This document shows positions 22,102 to 60,422 of a stretch of 64,000 nt of DNA, in pieces. Made by a program: the position numbers and the translations under genes. Under the pieces are notes generated by a model. That model made no database searches, was not told the DNA's origin, and saw nothing but the letters and a program-made list of their open reading frames with translations. Source of the DNA: Escherichia coli (GTDB lineage Bacteria > Pseudomonadota > Gammaproteobacteria > Enterobacterales > Enterobacteriaceae); assembly GCF_003018255.1 (NCBI RefSeq), contig NZ_CP027440.1. One strand, given 5' to 3'. Positions within the stretch are counted from its first letter, which is position 1; every line of letters starts with the position of its first letter.

Positions 22102-24974
<2,873 letters not shown>

Positions 24975-25524
24975 TTATCGTTCATGAGAAGCATAACGTA
25001 AAGGGAAGAGCTCGATTAGACGGCAGGATTTGTCAGGGGTTATGAACAAAATTCATAAATCTGTTTGAGGGTTGAGATTAGTCGTGCAAGTTCGATATCC
25101 CCGGAATTTACAGTCCGATGAATAAAAATGAATGTCCATAAAAAATATATTGGTTTATCCCAGCGTATATACTTACTTCGACGTACTCCCAATAGCAGTT
25201 AATTAAAGACGGGTCATTATTATTCACTCTGAATAATGAATTATTCACTGCCCGCAGAGTAAGAAATATAACTTAAGTATCTATTTAATGACTTGCACAA
25301 AAAGCTAAATTTTTACCCATAAATAAAAATATAATCCCGCGCCCAACCACCTGATGAGTGGCTACAGACACTGGATATATTAGGTGGCGGTGTACTTTCT
25401 TACATAAAGGTATTTCCTTTTCTGTGGAAAAGGAAACCGGGAAATCCCCGGTTTTTCTGACAAGCAGACGCCATTATTTGTGTCTGCCTATGTTCGTTAA
25501 TTCGTTCATCAGGAAATTATCTCA

Positions 25525-28500
25525 ATGTCACGTTATAAAACAGACAATAAACAGCCACGATTTCGTTATTCAGTTCTGGCCCGCTGCGTGGCGTGGGCAA
25601 ATATCTCTGTTCAGGTTCTTTTTCCACTCGCAGTCACCTTTACGCCAGTAATGGCAGCACGTGCGCAGCATGCGGTTCAGCCACGGTTGAGCATGGAAAA
25701 TACTACGGTAACTGCTGATAATAACGTGGAGAAAAATGTCGCGTCGCTTGCCGCTAATGCCGGGACATTTTTAAGCAGTCAGCCAGATAGCGATGCGACA
25801 CGTAACTTTATTACCGGAATGGCCACCGCTAAAGCTAACCAGGAAATTCAGGAGTGGCTCGGGAAATACGGTACTGCGCGCGTCAAACTGAATGTCGATA
25901 AAGATTTCTCGCTGAAGGATTCTTCGCTGGAAATGCTTTATCCGATTTATGATACACCGACAAATATGTTGTTCACTCAGGGGGCAATACATCGTACCGA
26001 CGATCGTACTCAGTCAAATATTGGTTTTGGCTGGCGTCATTTTTCAGAAAATGACTGGATGGCGGGGGTGAATACTTTTATCGATCATGATTTATCCCGT
26101 AGTCATACCCGCATTGGTGTTGGTGCGGAATACTGGCGTGATTATTTGAAACTGAGCGCCAATGGTTATATCCGGGCTTCTGGCTGGAAAAAATCACCGG
26201 ATGTTGAGGATTATCAGGAACGCCCGGCGAATGGCTGGGATATTCGTGCTGAGGGCTATTTACCTGCCTGGCCGCAGCTTGGCGCAAGCCTGATGTATGA
26301 GCAGTATTATGGTGATGAAGTCGGGCTGTTTGGTAAAGATAAACGCCAGAAAGACCCGCATGCTATTTCTGCCGAGGTAACCTATACACCAGTGCCTCTT
26401 CTGACACTGAGCGCCGGGCATAAGCAGGGCAAGAGTGGTGAGAATGACACTCGCTTTGGCCTGGAAGTTAATTATCGGATTGGCGAACCTCTGGAAAAAC
26501 AACTCGATACAGACAGTATTCGCGAGCGTCGAATGCTGGCAGGCAGCCGCTATGACCTGGTTGAGCGTAATAACAATATCGTTCTTGAGTATCGCAAATC
26601 TGAAGTGATCCGTATTGCTCTGCCTGAGCGTATTGAAGGCAAGGGCGGCCAGACGGTTTCCCTGGGGCTTGTGGTCAGCAAAGCAACTCACGGTCTGAAA
26701 AATGTGCAATGGGAAGCGCCGTCTTTGCTGGCCGCAGGCGGAAAAATTACGGGGCAGGGCAATCAGTGGCAAGTGACGCTCCCGGCTTATCAGGCAGGCA
26801 AAGACAATTATTATGCGGTTTCAGCGATTGCCTACGATAACAAAGGCAATGCCTCGAAACGTGTGCAGACAGAAGTGGTTATTAGCGGAGCTGGTATGAG
26901 CGCCGATCGTACGGCGTTAACGCTTGACGGTCAGAGCCGTATTCAAATGCTTGCTAACGGTAATGAGCAAAAGCCGCTGGTGCTGTCTCTGCGCGACGCC
27001 GAGGGTCAGCCAGTCACGGGCATGAAAGATCAGATCAAGACTGAACTAACTTTCAAACCGGCTGGAAATATTGTGACTCGTTCTCTGAAGGCCACTAAAT
27101 CACAGGCAAAGCCAACACTGGGTGAGTTCACCGAAACTGAAGCAGGGGTGTATCAGTCTGTCTTTACTACCGGAACGCAGTCAGGTGAGGCAACGATTAC
27201 TGTTAGCGTTGATGGCATGAGCAAAACCGTCACTGCAGAACTGCGGGCCACGATGATGGATGTGGCAAACTCCACCCTGAGCGCTAACGAGCCGTCAGGT
27301 GACGTGGTTGCTGATGGTCAGCAAGCCTACACGCTGACGCTGACTGCGGTGGACTCCGAGGGTAATCCGGTGACGGGAGAAGCCAGCCGCCTGCGACTTG
27401 TTCCGCAAGACACTAATGGTGTTACCGTTGGTGCCATTTCGGAAATAAAACCAGGGGTTTACAGCGCCACGGTTTCTTCGACCCGTGCCGGAAACGTTGT
27501 TGTGCGTGCCTTCAGCGAGCAGTATCAGCTGGGCACATTACAACAAACGCTGAAGTTTGTTGCCGGGCCGCTTGATGCAGCACATTCGTCCATCACCCTG
27601 AATCCTGATAAACCGGTGGTCGGCGGTACAGTTACGGCAATCTGGACGGCAAAAGATGCCAATGACAACCCTGTAACAGGCCTCAATCCGGATGCACCGT
27701 CATTAGCGGGTGCCGCTGCTGTAGGTTCTACGGCATCGGGCTGGACAAATAATGGTGATGGGACGTGGACTGCGCAAATTACTCTCGGCTCTACGGCGGG
27801 TGAATTAGAAGTTATGCCGAAGCTAAATGGACAGGATGCGGCAGCAAACGCGGCAAAAGTAACCGTGGTGGCTGATGCATTATCTTCAAACCAGTCGAAA
27901 GTCTCTGTCGCAGAAGATCACGTAAAAGCCGGTGAAAGCACAACCGTAACGCTGGTGGCGAAAGATGCGCATGGCAACGCTATCAGTGGTCTTTCGTTGT
28001 CGGCAAGTTTGACGGGGACCGCCTCTGAAGGGGCGACCGTTTCCAGTTGGACCGAAAAAGGTGACGGTTCCTATGTTGCTACGTTAACTACAGGCGGAAA
28101 GACGGGCGAGCTTCGTGTCATGCCGCTCTTCAACGGCCAGCCTGCAGCCACCGAAGCCGCGCAGCTGACTGTTATTGCCGGAGAGATGTCATCAGCGAAC
28201 TCTACGCTTGTTGCGGACAATAAAACTCCAACGGTTAAAACGACGACGGAACTCACCTTCACCGTGAAGGATGCGTACGGGAATCCGGTCACCGGGCTGA
28301 AGCCAGATGCACCAGTGTTTAGTGGTGCCGCCAGCACGGGGAGTGAGCGTCCTTCAGTAGGAAACTGGACAGAGAAAGGTAATGGGGTCTACGTGTCGAC
28401 CTTAACGCTGGGATCTGCCGCGGGTCAGTTGTCTGTGATGCCGCGAGTGAACGGCCAAAATGCCGTTGCTCAGCCACTGGTGCTGAATGTTGCAGGTGAC

Positions 28501-29775
28501 GCATCTAAGGCTGAGATTCGTGATATGACAGTGAAGGTTAATAACCAACTGGCTAATGGACAGTCTGCTAACCAGATAACCCTGACCGTCGTGGACAGCT
28601 ATGGTAACCCGTTGCAGGGGCAAGAAGTTACGCTGACTTTACCGCAGGGTGTGACTAGCAAGACGGGGAATACAGTAACAACCAATGCGGCAGGTAAAGC
28701 GGATATTGAGTTGATATCAACCGTTGCAGGGGAACTTGAAATCGCGGCCGCGGTGAAAAACTCTCAGAAGACGGTCACGGTGAAATTCAACGCGGATGCC
28801 AGCACCGGTCAGGCAAACCTGCAGGTTGACACCGCCGTTCAAAAAGTGGCAAACGGCAAAGATGCCTTTACGCTGACGGCGACCGTTGAGGATAAAAACG
28901 GTAACCCTGTTCCAGGCACTCTGGTGACCTTTAATCTGCCCCGGGGTGTCAAGCCGCTTACTGGCGATAATGTCTGGGTGAAAGCCAACGATGAGGGGAA
29001 AGCGGAGTTGCAGGTGGTTTCCGTGACTGCCGGAACCTATGAGATCACGGCGTCGGCAGGAAATGACCAGCCTTCGGATGCGCAGACTATAACGTTTGTG
29101 GCCGATAAGGCGACCGCAACCGTCTCCGGTATTGAGGTGATTGGCAACTATGCACTGGCGGATGGCAAAGCCAAACAGACGTATAAAGTTACGGTGACTG
29201 ATGCCAATAACAACCTGTTGAAAGATAGCGAGGTGACGCTGACTGCCAGCCCGGCAAATTTAGCTCTGGATCCCGATGGGACGGCGAAAACTAATGAGCA
29301 AGGGCAGGCTATTTTCACCGCTACCACTACTGTTGCGGCGACATACACACTCAAGGCGCAAGTGAGTCAGACCAACGGTCAGGTATCAACGAAAACTGCC
29401 GAATCTAAATTCGTCGCGGATGATAAAAACGCGGAGCTCGCTGCATCTCCAGAGCGTGTAGATTCTCTGGTGGCGGACGGGAAGACTACTGCAACACTGA
29501 CGGTTACTCTGATGTCGGGTGTCAACCCCGTAGGAGGAACCATGTGGGTCGACATTGAGGCTCCGGAAGGGGTGACAGAGGCGGATTATCAGTTCCTGCC
29601 GTCGAAAAATGACCATTTCGCGAGCGGGAAAATCACGCGTACATTTAGTACCAACAAGCCAGGTACATACACATTCACATTCAACTCTTTGACATATGGA
29701 GGGTATGAAATGAAACCAGTGACTGTGACAATTAACGCCGTTCCTGCAGATACTGAAGGCGCTGAGGAGAAATAA
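25525..29775 (+). CDS. eaeH: Intimin/invasin-family adhesin EaeH (FdeC), intact
   Basis: 1416-aa ORF; N-terminal beta-barrel anchor region followed by many tandem bacterial Ig-like (Big) repeats. Confidence 0.9.
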   Translation: MSRYKTDNKQPRFRYSVLARCVAWANISVQVLFPLAVTFTPVMAARAQHAVQPRLSMENTTVTADNNVEKNVASLAANAGTFLSSQPDSDATRNFITGMATAKANQEIQEWLGKYGTARVKLNVDKDFSLKDSSLEMLYPIYDTPTNMLFTQGAIHRTDDRTQSNIGFGWRHFSENDWMAGVNTFIDHDLSRSHTRIGVGAEYWRDYLKLSANGYIRASGWKKSPDVEDYQERPANGWDIRAEGYLPAWPQLGASLMYEQYYGDEVGLFGKDKRQKDPHAISAEVTYTPVPLLTLSAGHKQGKSGENDTRFGLEVNYRIGEPLEKQLDTDSIRERRMLAGSRYDLVERNNNIVLEYRKSEVIRIALPERIEGKGGQTVSLGLVVSKATHGLKNVQWEAPSLLAAGGKITGQGNQWQVTLPAYQAGKDNYYAVSAIAYDNKGNASKRVQTEVVISGAGMSADRTALTLDGQSRIQMLANGNEQKPLVLSLRDAEGQPVTGMKDQIKTELTFKPAGNIVTRSLKATKSQAKPTLGEFTETEAGVYQSVFTTGTQSGEATITVSVDGMSKTVTAELRATMMDVANSTLSANEPSGDVVADGQQAYTLTLTAVDSEGNPVTGEASRLRLVPQDTNGVTVGAISEIKPGVYSATVSSTRAGNVVVRAFSEQYQLGTLQQTLKFVAGPLDAAHSSITLNPDKPVVGGTVTAIWTAKDANDNPVTGLNPDAPSLAGAAAVGSTASGWTNNGDGTWTAQITLGSTAGELEVMPKLNGQDAAANAAKVTVVADALSSNQSKVSVAEDHVKAGESTTVTLVAKDAHGNAISGLSLSASLTGTASEGATVSSWTEKGDGSYVATLTTGGKTGELRVMPLFNGQPAATEAAQLTVIAGEMSSANSTLVADNKTPTVKTTTELTFTVKDAYGNPVTGLKPDAPVFSGAASTGSERPSVGNWTEKGNGVYVSTLTLGSAAGQLSVMPRVNGQNAVAQPLVLNVAGDASKAEIRDMTVKVNNQLANGQSANQITLTVVDSYGNPLQGQEVTLTLPQGVTSKTGNTVTTNAAGKADIELISTVAGELEIAAAVKNSQKTVTVKFNADASTGQANLQVDTAVQKVANGKDAFTLTATVEDKNGNPVPGTLVTFNLPRGVKPLTGDNVWVKANDEGKAELQVVSVTAGTYEITASAGNDQPSDAQTITFVADKATATVSGIEVIGNYALADGKAKQTYKVTVTDANNNLLKDSEVTLTASPANLALDPDGTAKTNEQGQAIFTATTTVAATYTLKAQVSQTNGQVSTKTAESKFVADDKNAELAASPERVDSLVADGKTTATLTVTLMSGVNPVGGTMWVDIEAPEGVTEADYQFLPSKNDHFASGKITRTFSTNKPGTYTFTFNSLTYGGYEMKPVTVTINAVPADTEGAEEK

Positions 29776-29794
29776 AAACGACGATGTAATAAAT

Positions 29795-29870
29795 AATAAT
29801 GGCGTTGACATGCGCAGCGCCATTATTTACTGAATACCTACCCTGGTACCGATTAGACGGTGGCAGGGTA
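29795..29870. terminator. Two hairpins between the convergent eaeH and AraC-family genes
   Basis: aataatggcg...cgccattatt and taccctg...cagggta stems. Confidence 0.4.
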
Positions 29871-29899
29871 GGGTAAATCTTATGTGATGGATTTACAGG

Positions 29900-30790
29900 C
29901 TAAACCGGGCGAACGGGGATAAAAATTTCGCAAACAATGTTATTGCTATCAATTTCGACGAAGTTTTCATTGTAATAAAACCGCTCAATATCACTGCCGT
30001 TCACTCTGGCTAACCCCCTGGCGGGTAATTCCATCAGATAGAGGTTTCGCGCCCATTCAGGGTAGTGCTCCCACTCACCTTCATAGCGGAAAGAGGCATA
30101 CAGTCCTCGGTTAATTGTCCACTCTTTCGACATCTCTGAATCGGTTTGTTTGCATACCGTACCGGCAAAAGTTTCAACTGTGAGCAAATCGACCGATTTT
30201 GTTGATGGTTCGAACGTGGAGACGAAATAGATATCCGTCTTAAAACTCTTCATACATCTGGCTAAATGATGACGTCGCAGTTTGACTTCTTCATCCGGTG
30301 ATTTATTCGACACTTCAATGTCATATTTAAATGAATCGCCAAAAATAGGTGTCTCAGGAAAGTTGACTAATTTACACTCCGTCTTTTGCTGTTGACGTAT
30401 TAAAAAAGAAGGGAAGATATTTGCGAGATCCCAATAATCACGGTGGCGGTATTCACGGGGAGAGCAGCCGAATAACTTTTTAAATTCGCGGCTGAATGAC
30501 TGCTGTGAATCAAAATGCAAAGAGAGTGCAATATCAAGCATAGATTTCGCGGTGAGCCGGACAAGAATGGCGGCACGACAAAGCCTTCGTTTGCGAATGT
30601 ATTCTCCCAAAGGCACATGCATGAAATTTCGGAACAGAAGCTGGATGTTGCGTCTGCTGTAGCCAGATTTCTGTGCGATATCTTCGATTGAAATAGGGTG
30701 TTCGAGATTGCACTCAATCCACTCCAGGAGCTGCTGTAGAATCTTCTGCCTGATCATCACATTCTCCATTAATTCTTCGTCATATCGCAC
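29900..30790 (-). CDS. ykgA: AraC-family regulator with C-terminal GyrI-like effector domain (YkgA-like)
   Basis: AraC HTH in the N-terminal half; true start may be an internal Met (MENVMIRQ). Confidence 0.7.
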   Translation of the reverse strand: MRYDEELMENVMIRQKILQQLLEWIECNLEHPISIEDIAQKSGYSRRNIQLLFRNFMHVPLGEYIRKRRLCRAAILVRLTAKSMLDIALSLHFDSQQSFSREFKKLFGCSPREYRHRDYWDLANIFPSFLIRQQQKTECKLVNFPETPIFGDSFKYDIEVSNKSPDEEVKLRRHHLARCMKSFKTDIYFVSTFEPSTKSVDLLTVETFAGTVCKQTDSEMSKEWTINRGLYASFRYEGEWEHYPEWARNLYLMELPARGLARVNGSDIERFYYNENFVEIDSNNIVCEIFIPVRPV

Positions 30791-60149: not shown

Positions 60150-60422
60150 TATGCCGGATGCGACATGAATGTCTTATCCGGCCTACGAATGGCGCGGAAA
60201 TCTGTAGGCCTGATAAGCGTGGCGCTTCAGGCATTGGCCACCACAGCCGGATGCGACGTGAACGCCTTATCCGGCCTACGAATGGCACGGAAATCTGTAG
60301 GCCTGATAAGCGTAGCGCATCAGGCATTGGTCACCACAGCCGGATGCGGCGTGAACGCCTTATCCGGCCTACGAGTGGCGCAAGAATCTGTAGGCCTGAT
60401 AAGCGTAGCGCATCAGGCAGTC
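60150..60422. repeat. REP/BIME array: three tandem units of about 95 bp, each with a pair of inverted REP sequences
   Basis: gccggatgcgacgtgaacgccttatccggcctac ... tgtaggcctgataagcgtagcgcatcaggc repeated three times between yahG and yahI. Confidence 0.8.

Follow-up and report, generated by a model that had tools for sequence, protein, structure and literature searches.

An intact fdeC (eaeH) allele of Escherichia coli encodes a ten-domain inverse autotransporter that varies between strains by segment exchange, not by repeat number

A long open reading frame in the 64,000-nt stretch of E. coli DNA analyzed here (the window; Table 1) is, with a probability of about 93%, chromosomal fdeC (eaeH), which encodes the prototype FdeC-type adhesin and varies between strains through segment exchange, not repeat number. 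The frame runs uninterrupted for 1416 codons plus a stop, and position 25525 is the earliest possible start 3′ of the upstream in-frame stop. RefSeq annotation of the closest complete genome places fdeC at the same coordinates, and the best complete-genome match is 98.3% identical in nucleotide sequence over the gene. The open frame cannot be put down to a sequencing accident, since 58 independent public contigs carry an identical 1416-aa protein, listed at NCBI under FdeC names. Alignment to FdeC, proposed as a check in the initial annotation, gave 406 identities out of 414 (98%) between residues 595–1008 and the FdeC crystal fragment 4E9L. The protein is 92–95% identical to representatives of the large FdeC clusters, and it lies within the >91% amino acid identity to reference FdeC that marks orthologues (Nesta 2012, PMC3324786). 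NCBIfam has no FdeC-specific model, and the models that match best (IatC, Ilp and intimin) do not reach their cut-offs; the gene name thus rests on near-identity and synteny. No evidence contradicts the identification, and both the EaeH/FdeC assignment and the intact frame claimed initially are borne out. The gene, its structure, its pseudogene state in K-12 and its control by H-NS and temperature have all been published already.

The gene lies between an aldo/keto-reductase/LysR cluster and ykgA-rclCBA. This order, with reductase and regulator upstream and the ykgA-type regulator and rclCBA downstream, matches Figure 1 of Nesta 2012 (PMC3324786). The initial annotation described eaeH as an IS-disrupted pseudogene in K-12, and this is correct: K-12 retains the first 876 nt of fdeC, followed by IS3, and a deletion reaches into the neighbouring regulator gene. 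The same remnant is reported by Nesta 2012 (PMC3324786).

Table 1. Features of the fdeC locus (positions in the window)
Feature	Position	Strand	Basis or detail
AT-rich intergenic region, shared with divergent aldo/keto-reductase gene	24960..25336	+	presumed promoter/H-NS target
Three alternating 7-nt arms, two overlapping palindromes	25220..25247	.	TTATTCA 25220-26, TGAATAA 25230-36, TTATTCA 25241-47
fdeC-specific non-coding leader, ~190 nt	25337..25524	+	conservation and predicted fold
Predicted leader hairpins	H0 25339-25393; H1 25414-25435; H2 25436-25452; H3 25464-25487		
fdeC (eaeH) CDS, inverse autotransporter (type Ve) adhesin	25525..29775	+	1416 aa
Predicted Sec signal peptide, long (about aa 1-44/47)	25525..25665	+	inspection of translation
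Outer-membrane beta-barrel translocator domain (aa 76-350)	25750..26574	+	Pfam IAT_beta PF11924
Ig-like D1 (aa 360-457), barrel-proximal, D00-type	26602..26895	+	intimin D00 match
Ig-like D2-D6 (aa 458-576, 577-682, 683-785, 786-887, 888-992)	26896..28500	+	Invasin_D3
Ig-like D7-D10 (aa 993-1091, 1092-1195, 1196-1300, 1301-1416)	28501..29772	+	Big_1 / Invasin_D3
Strong hairpins between convergent fdeC and regulator	29795..29897	.	29795-29827, 29837-29872, 29873-29897
AraC-family/GyrI-like regulator (ykgA-type), convergent with fdeC	29900..30757	-	Pfam HTH_18, HTH_AraC, GyrI-like

The encoded protein has type Ve architecture, in which an N-terminal IAT barrel precedes a C-terminal passenger of Ig-superfamily (Big_1/Invasin_D3) domains. 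Its predicted signal peptide has a basic N-region and then a hydrophobic stretch ending VMA/ARA/Q, and aa 1–76 contain neither LysM nor any other Pfam domain. The barrel matches IAT_beta over profile positions 3–279 of 279 (E=4e-109; 364.9 bits, cut-off 22.3), as well as the solved invasin/intimin barrels 4E1T (E=4e-83) and 4E1S (E=6e-71). The passenger comprises ten Ig-like domains of 98–119 aa each, agreeing with the ten Big domains described for FdeC (Heinz 2016, PMC4943183). Nine Invasin_D3 and four Big_1 stretches were found when the whole protein was scanned against Pfam. Scanned singly, nine of the ten domains (D2–D10) match one or other of these families, with Invasin_D3 E-values between 1e-11 and 1e-14 for each of D2–D6; D1 alone has no Pfam match and aligns with the intimin D00 structure 6TQD (E=5e-12 over aa 358–466). 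Domains D4–D6 are the three domains of the FdeC crystal structure, in which residues 678–991 are resolved (Nesta 2012, PMC3324786). No C-type lectin domain was found at the C-terminus in Pfam scans, and FdeC likewise lacks one according to Nesta 2012 (PMC3324786).

The resemblance of the barrel and D1 to intimin, to which the old name eaeH alludes, would fit a gene for intimin (Eae) proper, one that relies on a translocated receptor like the intimins of attaching-and-effacing pathogens. Yet the NCBIfam model intimin_all scores only 378.9 against a cut-off of 1400, in an alignment limited to the N-terminal 400 aa. LysM is absent as well as the lectin domain, and the neighbours are reductase, regulator and rcl genes, with no LEE genes. 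With the family cut-off missed and these domains lacking, intimin is ruled out, and we assign this reading a negligible probability. What FdeC, intimin and Yersinia invasin have in common is type Ve topology, an N-terminal barrel, a D00-type first domain and a Big/Invasin_D3 rod. FdeC differs in having ten Ig domains, against three or four in intimin and Yersinia invasin, and in lacking LysM, a terminal C-type lectin and a Tir- or integrin-binding module. A barrel of the same family and tandem Ig domains also occur in YeeJ, IatA-D and FdeC-like proteins of other Enterobacterales, several of which are reported as cryptic or silenced. Outside Escherichia, the first 460 aa of the next relatives reach at most 57% identity.

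Domain number is essentially fixed. The initial annotation described repeats of roughly 100 aa with very similar sequence. The ~100-aa domains are real; their near-identity is not, as the ten domains, excised and aligned pairwise, share only 20–44% amino acid identity. Tandem Repeats Finder, a seed-extension repeat search and word-7 self-blastn detected no domain-length DNA repeat, and the best DNA self-match within the gene in the last of these was 51 nt at 74.5% identity (E=0.18). The domains are thus too diverged for slippage or unequal recombination. In a 60-entry sample spread over 5077 complete genomes, all 53 full-length genes match the query span to within 8 nt. Large protein clusters fall at 1413–1420 aa, and the biggest (17949, 3112 and 3064 members) at 1417–1418 aa.

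Length variants do occur. One 12-domain lineage (P0090; 1630 aa, 234 member sequences) has two additional domains lying between D5 and D6, ~20 singleton proteins carry in-frame deletions, and one variant, P0082 (–102 aa), resembles an in-register D3/D4 fusion. Such variants are what one would look for if the Ig array were a contingency locus, whose near-identical repeats slip or recombine so that strains gain and lose domains and vary antigenically. But the extra domains of P0090 are only 36–44% identical to their neighbours, which marks an old difference rather than a recent duplication, and the deletions are irregular (89–268 aa), nearly all single sequences, some of them cutting into the barrel. 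Together with the low identity between domains, the missing DNA repeat and the constant length, these data largely refute a contingency locus, which we consider very improbable. Members of the alpha C/Rib family, for comparison, are likewise surface rods of tandem Ig-like modules, but their DNA repeats are near-identical and often change in copy number. FdeC shows neither property. Repeat expansion and contraction, as first proposed, is hence unsupported, and both of the checks suggested for it, self-comparison of the DNA and protein and comparison of repeat number across strains, speak against it: domain count is near constant, and the exceptions are rare, old or irregular.

Strains differ instead because deeply diverged alleles swap segments, about one to three domains long, by homologous exchange, and this exchange is concentrated in D7–D10. 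Diversity among alleles climbs from the barrel, where mean pairwise amino acid identity is 0.989, toward distal D8–D10, with values of 0.86–0.92 across D7–D10. Along one allele, nucleotide identity to the window can switch between 100% and 78–92% from one domain to the next. Strain JNE23-011 is one case: its flanks are 99.6–99.7% identical to the window, and the gene shows 0 mismatches in 25801–28200 and 85 in 28501–29400. The window allele is itself a mosaic, whose D4, D7–D9 and N-terminal segments derive from allele lineages other than those represented in its closest kin. Compared with FdeC of ExPEC IHE3034 (ECOK1_0290; PDB 4E9L) and EaeH of ETEC H10407, it is the same gene (1416 aa) with the same ten domains, locus, AT-rich upstream region and conserved leader, and the differences are allelic only. 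Variation of possible antigenic relevance does exist, as the initial annotation supposed, but its source is distal mosaic exchange and not repeat number. Knowing where the protein varies is useful, as FdeC is both a vaccine candidate and a near-universal adhesin of E. coli. Conservation extends over the barrel and the proximal domains, and so over most of the protective ‘region B’; D7–D10 are exchanged patchwise between strains.

The gene is under purifying selection, with a dN/dS of 0.19 over eight alleles (dS 0.16) and per-domain values of 0.04–0.35. This bears on whether fdeC might be a silent relic, intact by chance, unused and heading toward the K-12 state. The literature describes no expression in standard culture, and the K-12 copy has been lost to IS3 and deletion. 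Of 5426 complete E. coli genomes, 5077 hold the gene, and roughly 840 have it only in part or not at all; some 10–15% lack a full-length copy, so fdeC is dispensable in some lineages. Against a relic stand the dN/dS ratio, the identical protein on 58 contigs, a non-coding leader more conserved than synonymous sites (see below), and published colonisation and vaccine phenotypes. We consider disuse very improbable.

How the adhesin would work can be sketched from published studies of the family. FdeC would be exported via Sec, its barrel would be placed in the outer membrane with BAM/TAM help, and the passenger would be threaded out to form a rod, estimated at ~40 nm by scaling from the 126 Å of three domains in 4E9L. 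BAM/TAM-dependent insertion and surface exposure have been reported for CFT073 FdeC (Heinz 2016, PMC4943183). The rod would bind collagen and epithelial cells and promote aggregation and biofilm. In the published work, fdeC stays off under standard culture conditions and is switched on when H-NS is lost, at 39–42 °C or upon host-cell contact. Papers dealing with its function and regulation are PMC3324786, PMC4943183, PMC6714894 and PMC11143625.

The initial annotation noted an AT-rich upstream region and suggested H-NS control. The former holds, with 37.7% GC over 565 bp (24960–25524), versus 48.8% in the window as a whole and 52.0% in the CDS; the region is not exceptional, since 6% of all 565-bp segments of the window are at least as AT-rich. 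The latter is already on record for EHEC fdeC, as Easton et al. 2014 (AEM 80:7337) are cited in PMC6714894 and PMC4943183; the temperature effect comes from the same study as paraphrased in PMC11143625. We infer that the region is the H-NS target. With up to 2 mismatches allowed, the H-NS nucleation motif (TCGATAAATT) was not enriched, matching 77 times where 76.5 matches were expected, and only one of these lies in the upstream region. A sigma-70 consensus scan of the + strand of the intergenic region gave no canonical –35/–10 pair. E. coli and marmotae-type alleles share a TATAAT hexamer at 25330–25335. The palindrome arms farther upstream are preserved across eight E. coli alleles and eroded in the 12-domain lineage; judging from the sequence, they form a candidate transcription-factor site.

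Between TATAAT and the start codon lies a conserved leader that may be undescribed and is the only possibly new item at this locus. Over 25395–25524 (–130 to –1), 10.9% of sites vary, versus 27.9% of fourfold sites in the adjacent CDS (p=4e-4). In marmotae-type alleles these proximal 130 nt are 91% identical, compared with 80% for the first 225 coding nt. The motif GTTCGTTAAYTCGTTCAT occurs in 19 of 19 fdeC loci and in 0 of 75 other inverse-autotransporter loci. A coding reason for the conservation was rejected: a 97-aa ORF at 25358–25651 has no Pfam match, and its frame is lost in marmotae-type alleles through a 1-nt indel. The leader is predicted to fold stably (MFE –64.2 kcal/mol, z=–3.8). 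Double changes fall at ten predicted pairs, versus 4.7 in shuffles (1/500), and this support sits in H0 and H3; the depth of the covariation test is limited by orthologues outside Escherichia, none being closer than 57% identity. A T-run (25452–25456) directly follows predicted hairpin H2. Nucleotides 25453–25460 (TTTTCTGA) are predicted to pair with the ribosome-binding region at 25509–25516 (TCAGGAAA), giving AGGA a predicted pairing probability of 0.8–0.9. This helix is conserved and nearly invariant, so covariation is uninformative there.

These features raise the possibility, which we hold only tentatively, that the leader is a dedicated cis-regulatory RNA keeping fdeC untranslated or prematurely terminated until a signal arrives. 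Terminator-like H2 and its T-run would allow premature termination, and the U-rich strand at 25453–25460, by pairing with the ribosome-binding region, would block translation. Opening might be triggered by a small RNA or a protein, or else by host contact or heat, and the leader would add a post-transcriptional layer atop H-NS silencing. Simple RNA-thermometer melting was rejected in silico, albeit by a weak test: pairing of the ribosome-binding helix stays at 0.73–0.92 from 25 to 50 °C, in both the full leader and a 96-nt core. H2 was not listed in a terminator scan, and Rfam searches of 24900–25700, at gathering thresholds and at E<=10, gave nothing credible. Literature queries on an fdeC/eaeH start site, small RNAs and Hfq/CsrA links, one of them too broad, yielded nothing usable. 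No such element is described in Rfam or in the literature searched, which did not extend to Easton 2014, the likeliest promoter-mapping paper. If the proposal is true, leader control could account for the restriction of FdeC to host contact or 39–42 °C; the element would offer a testable handle on this unexplained host-contact-only expression.

Two antisense ORFs within the locus (26260–26772 and 29386–29823) have neither a Pfam match nor RefSeq annotation. The ykgA-type regulator downstream is a 285-aa CDS in RefSeq and also lies 3′ of fdeC in marmotae-type and 12-domain loci, though their other flanks differ. The hairpins between the two convergent genes (MFE –52.2 kcal/mol, z=–8.0) probably form a bidirectional terminator region, as judged from predicted folding.

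A single unbroken open reading frame of 1416 codons plus stop (Table) begins at the earliest possible start codon past the upstream in-frame stop. The identical span in E. coli DETEC-S792, the closest complete genome (98.3% nucleotide identity across fdeC), is annotated by RefSeq as 'fdeC, inverse autotransporter adhesin FdeC', 1416 aa. Because the exact protein is already public on 58 contigs, and named FdeC in NCBI and UniRef, the open frame is not a sequencing artefact. Thus, the initial annotation of an intact EaeH/FdeC is correct, and the gene is already well known. The K-12 gene had been described as a pseudogene disrupted by an IS element, and this too was confirmed. In strain W3110, the upstream region is kept and fdeC continues for 876 nt up to IS3; the remaining gene sequence and a portion of the adjoining AraC/GyrI-type regulator are deleted. 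Nesta 2012 (PMC3324786) also describes the K-12 state.

The encoded protein has an inverse-autotransporter β-barrel followed by a passenger in which Pfam places nine Invasin_D3 stretches and, overlapping them, four of Big_1. Domain scans found no LysM or any other domain in the first 76 aa and no lectin domain beyond the end of the passenger. We divided the passenger into ten Ig-like units of 98–119 aa each (D1–D10). Scanned singly, each of D2–D10 matched Invasin_D3/Big_1; D1 had no Pfam match and resembles the solved intimin D00 domain (6TQD). Residues 595–1008 are identical to the FdeC crystal fragment 4E9L at 406 of 414 positions. This architecture agrees with published descriptions: a 1416-aa protein in IHE3034 with three Ig domains resolved and lectin absent (Nesta 2012, PMC3324786), and ten Big domains with TAM-assisted assembly (Heinz 2016, PMC4943183). 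NCBIfam has no FdeC-specific model, and the protein's score with its intimin model, 379 bits, falls short of the cut-off (1400). Likeness to intimin is therefore confined to the barrel.

Table. Coordinates of features in the window, the comparison loci and the FdeC protein
Feature	Position	Strand	Sequence	Remark
tRNA gene	10140-10212		window
Rfam family IS009	11456-11656		window	full-length match, 197 bits
Aldo/keto-reductase pair	24108-24959 and upstream		window
AT-rich intergenic region	24960-25524		window	565 bp
Palindrome arms	25220-25247		window	TTATTCA/TGAATAA/TTATTCA
fdeC leader	25337-25524		window	non-coding
fdeC	25525-29775	+	window
β-barrel	aa 76-350		FdeC protein	Pfam, E=4e-109
Three hairpins	29795-29897		window	z=-8.0
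hyxB	39855-42179	-	window	autotransporter gene
Three ORFs	42188-44847	-	window	hyxA, hyxR, ipbA by position
REP/BIME-type tandem array	60153-60419		window	2.9 copies of 93-nt unit
Rfam naRNA4 matches	60207-60276, 60300-60369	-	window	two array copies
12-domain fdeC gene	6001-10893		L004-L006
Second-locus FdeC-like gene, ten domains	1201-5451		L015	proteins P0109, P0113 (both loci)
Second-locus FdeC-like gene, ten domains	1201-5445		L016

The Ig repeats had been described as very similar and prone to expansion or contraction. In fact, the ten domains are just 20–44% identical to one another, with the closest pairs inside D4–D6 and D7/D8, and DNA self-comparison revealed no repeat of domain length (Tandem Repeats Finder, a seed-extension repeat finder and sensitive self-blastn). 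The gene thus offers no substrate for slippage or efficient unequal homologous recombination. Of 5426 complete E. coli genomes, 5077 had a match to fdeC, and in 4585 a single piece covered at least 80% of the gene. When 60 rows spread across the entire ranking of these matches were checked, every full-length row (53/53) kept the query span within 8 nt. Similarly, in a collection of 5.8 billion proteins, lengths are 1417–1418 aa for the large clusters (of 17949, 3112 and 3064 members), and 78 among the 120 representatives listed measure 1400–1420 aa. Departures from this length are rare, old or irregular. In-frame deletions of 89–268 aa occur at irregular positions in ∼20 other proteins, nearly all single sequences, and some reach into the barrel. 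Comparison of repeat number across strains, proposed at the outset as a check that absence of variation would fail, hence showed no variation for practical purposes. These data do not support the speculated repeat expansion and contraction.

One lineage does differ in domain number. Its 1630-aa protein (P0090, 234 members) has twelve Ig domains, the two additional ones being of D4–D6 type and lying between D5 and D6. Because these share only 36–44% identity with any other domain, the difference between ten and twelve domains is old. The downstream regulator gene is the same as in the window; the upstream context differs, with sulfatase and radical-SAM genes. An E. marmotae allele (L014) has this same upstream context but ten domains. 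A ten-domain FdeC-like paralogue, 80–82% identical, occupies a second locus flanked by MarR-family and mrp/apbC-like (ParA/NBP35-type) genes; of the fdeC leader, it keeps just the final ∼75 nt. Some complete genomes have two fdeC-like places.

Variation among alleles lies in sequence. Mean pairwise amino acid identity among 79 full-length sequences is 0.989 for the barrel and declines to 0.86–0.88 in D8–D10. For eight alleles with DNA, identity to the window changes abruptly from domain to domain: DETEC-S792 is 100% identical in D1, D5–D8 and D10 and 91% in D4; SCU-125 is 100% identical in the N-terminus and D5 and 85% in D8; and D10 of O157 and W is 78% identical. JNE23-011, with flanks 99.6–99.7% identical to the window, has 0 mismatches over 25801–28200, compared with 85 in 28501–29400 and 44 in 24901–25800. 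Such a pattern is the hallmark of homologous recombination in short patches between alleles that are deeply diverged. Across the eight alleles, dN/dS is <1 throughout (0.04–0.35 by domain, 0.19 overall, with a peak in D8–D9); fdeC is kept by selection, and domain-wide positive selection is absent.

The region upstream of fdeC has a GC content of 37.7%, lower than that of the window (48.8%) or the gene (52.0%); ∼6% of windows of equal length in this region are equally AT-rich. The AT-richness noted in the initial annotation therefore stands. A scan for H-NS nucleation motifs was uninformative. No consensus promoter scored in the scan. Control of fdeC by H-NS and temperature is reported in the title of Easton et al. 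2014. To this picture, sequence alone adds only AT-richness. PMC11143625 paraphrases that study as showing expression only at 39°C or above and itself describes an avian strain with induction at 42°C, and Nesta 2012 (PMC3324786) describes induction by host-cell contact. The upstream aldo/keto-reductase pair is also found in the other strains with matches covering the whole 6-kb query; REL606, W and K-12 have a short pseudogene remnant instead, with a breakpoint at about 24974, the start of the AT-rich region. Three alternating 7-nt arms form overlapping palindromes ∼85–110 bp upstream of a conserved TATAAT. Conserved across alleles of E. coli, these arms may be where a transcription factor of fdeC or of the divergent reductase operon binds.

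Conservation is unusually high in the ∼190 nt preceding the start codon. A comparison of twelve E. coli-type alleles showed variation at 10.9% of positions from –130 to –1, versus 27.9% of the fourfold-degenerate sites within codons 1–359 (p=4e-4). In the marmotae-type and 12-domain alleles, this segment is 91% identical, versus 80% for the first 225 coding nt, and distal intergenic DNA is unalignable. All 19 fdeC loci examined share an 18-nt leader motif, which is absent from each of 75 further inverse-autotransporter loci, drawn from other genera. A coding explanation is ruled out, because an indel breaks the frame and no family matches. The leader RNA is predicted to fold (–64.2 kcal/mol, z=–3.8) into four hairpins (H0–H3), one followed by a T-run. 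One predicted helix pairs TTTTCTGA (25453-60) with TCAGGAAA (25509-16), covering the Shine–Dalgarno sequence. Ten pairs showed double compensatory changes, mainly in H0 and H3, compared with 4.7 in shuffles (1 of 500). This covariation lends the predicted structure modest support, since the structure was itself derived from the window sequence and the 17 sequences represent just three or four lineages that are independent. In silico, the ribosome-binding-site pairing showed no melting between 25 and 50°C, and a simple RNA thermometer is therefore not supported. The leader matched no Rfam family, and we found no description of it in the literature. This leader, specific to fdeC loci and predicted to occlude the ribosome-binding site, is a lead deserving a small experiment.

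Other features of the window were also noted. The 124 nt that separate fdeC from the convergent AraC/GyrI-type regulator gene are filled by three very stable hairpins, probably a terminator acting in both directions. The hyxB gene has at most 774 codons, versus 862 aa in the near-isogenic JNE23-011; an indel of ∼277 nt lies near 41132-41154, and mismatches are dense over 41100-42000. The hyxB passenger is thus length-polymorphic. The three ORFs beside it correspond by position to hyxA, hyxR (LuxR-type regulator) and ipbA (FimX/HbiF tyrosine DNA invertase) as annotated in JNE23-011. These genes form the PAI-X module, and FimX flips an invertible hyxR promoter. A REP/BIME-type array includes two naRNA4 matches. 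Finally, the part of the window with a tRNA gene and an IS009 match resembles an insertion site for a tRNA-associated island, because related strains such as LF82 carry extra DNA there, including the vat toxin gene.
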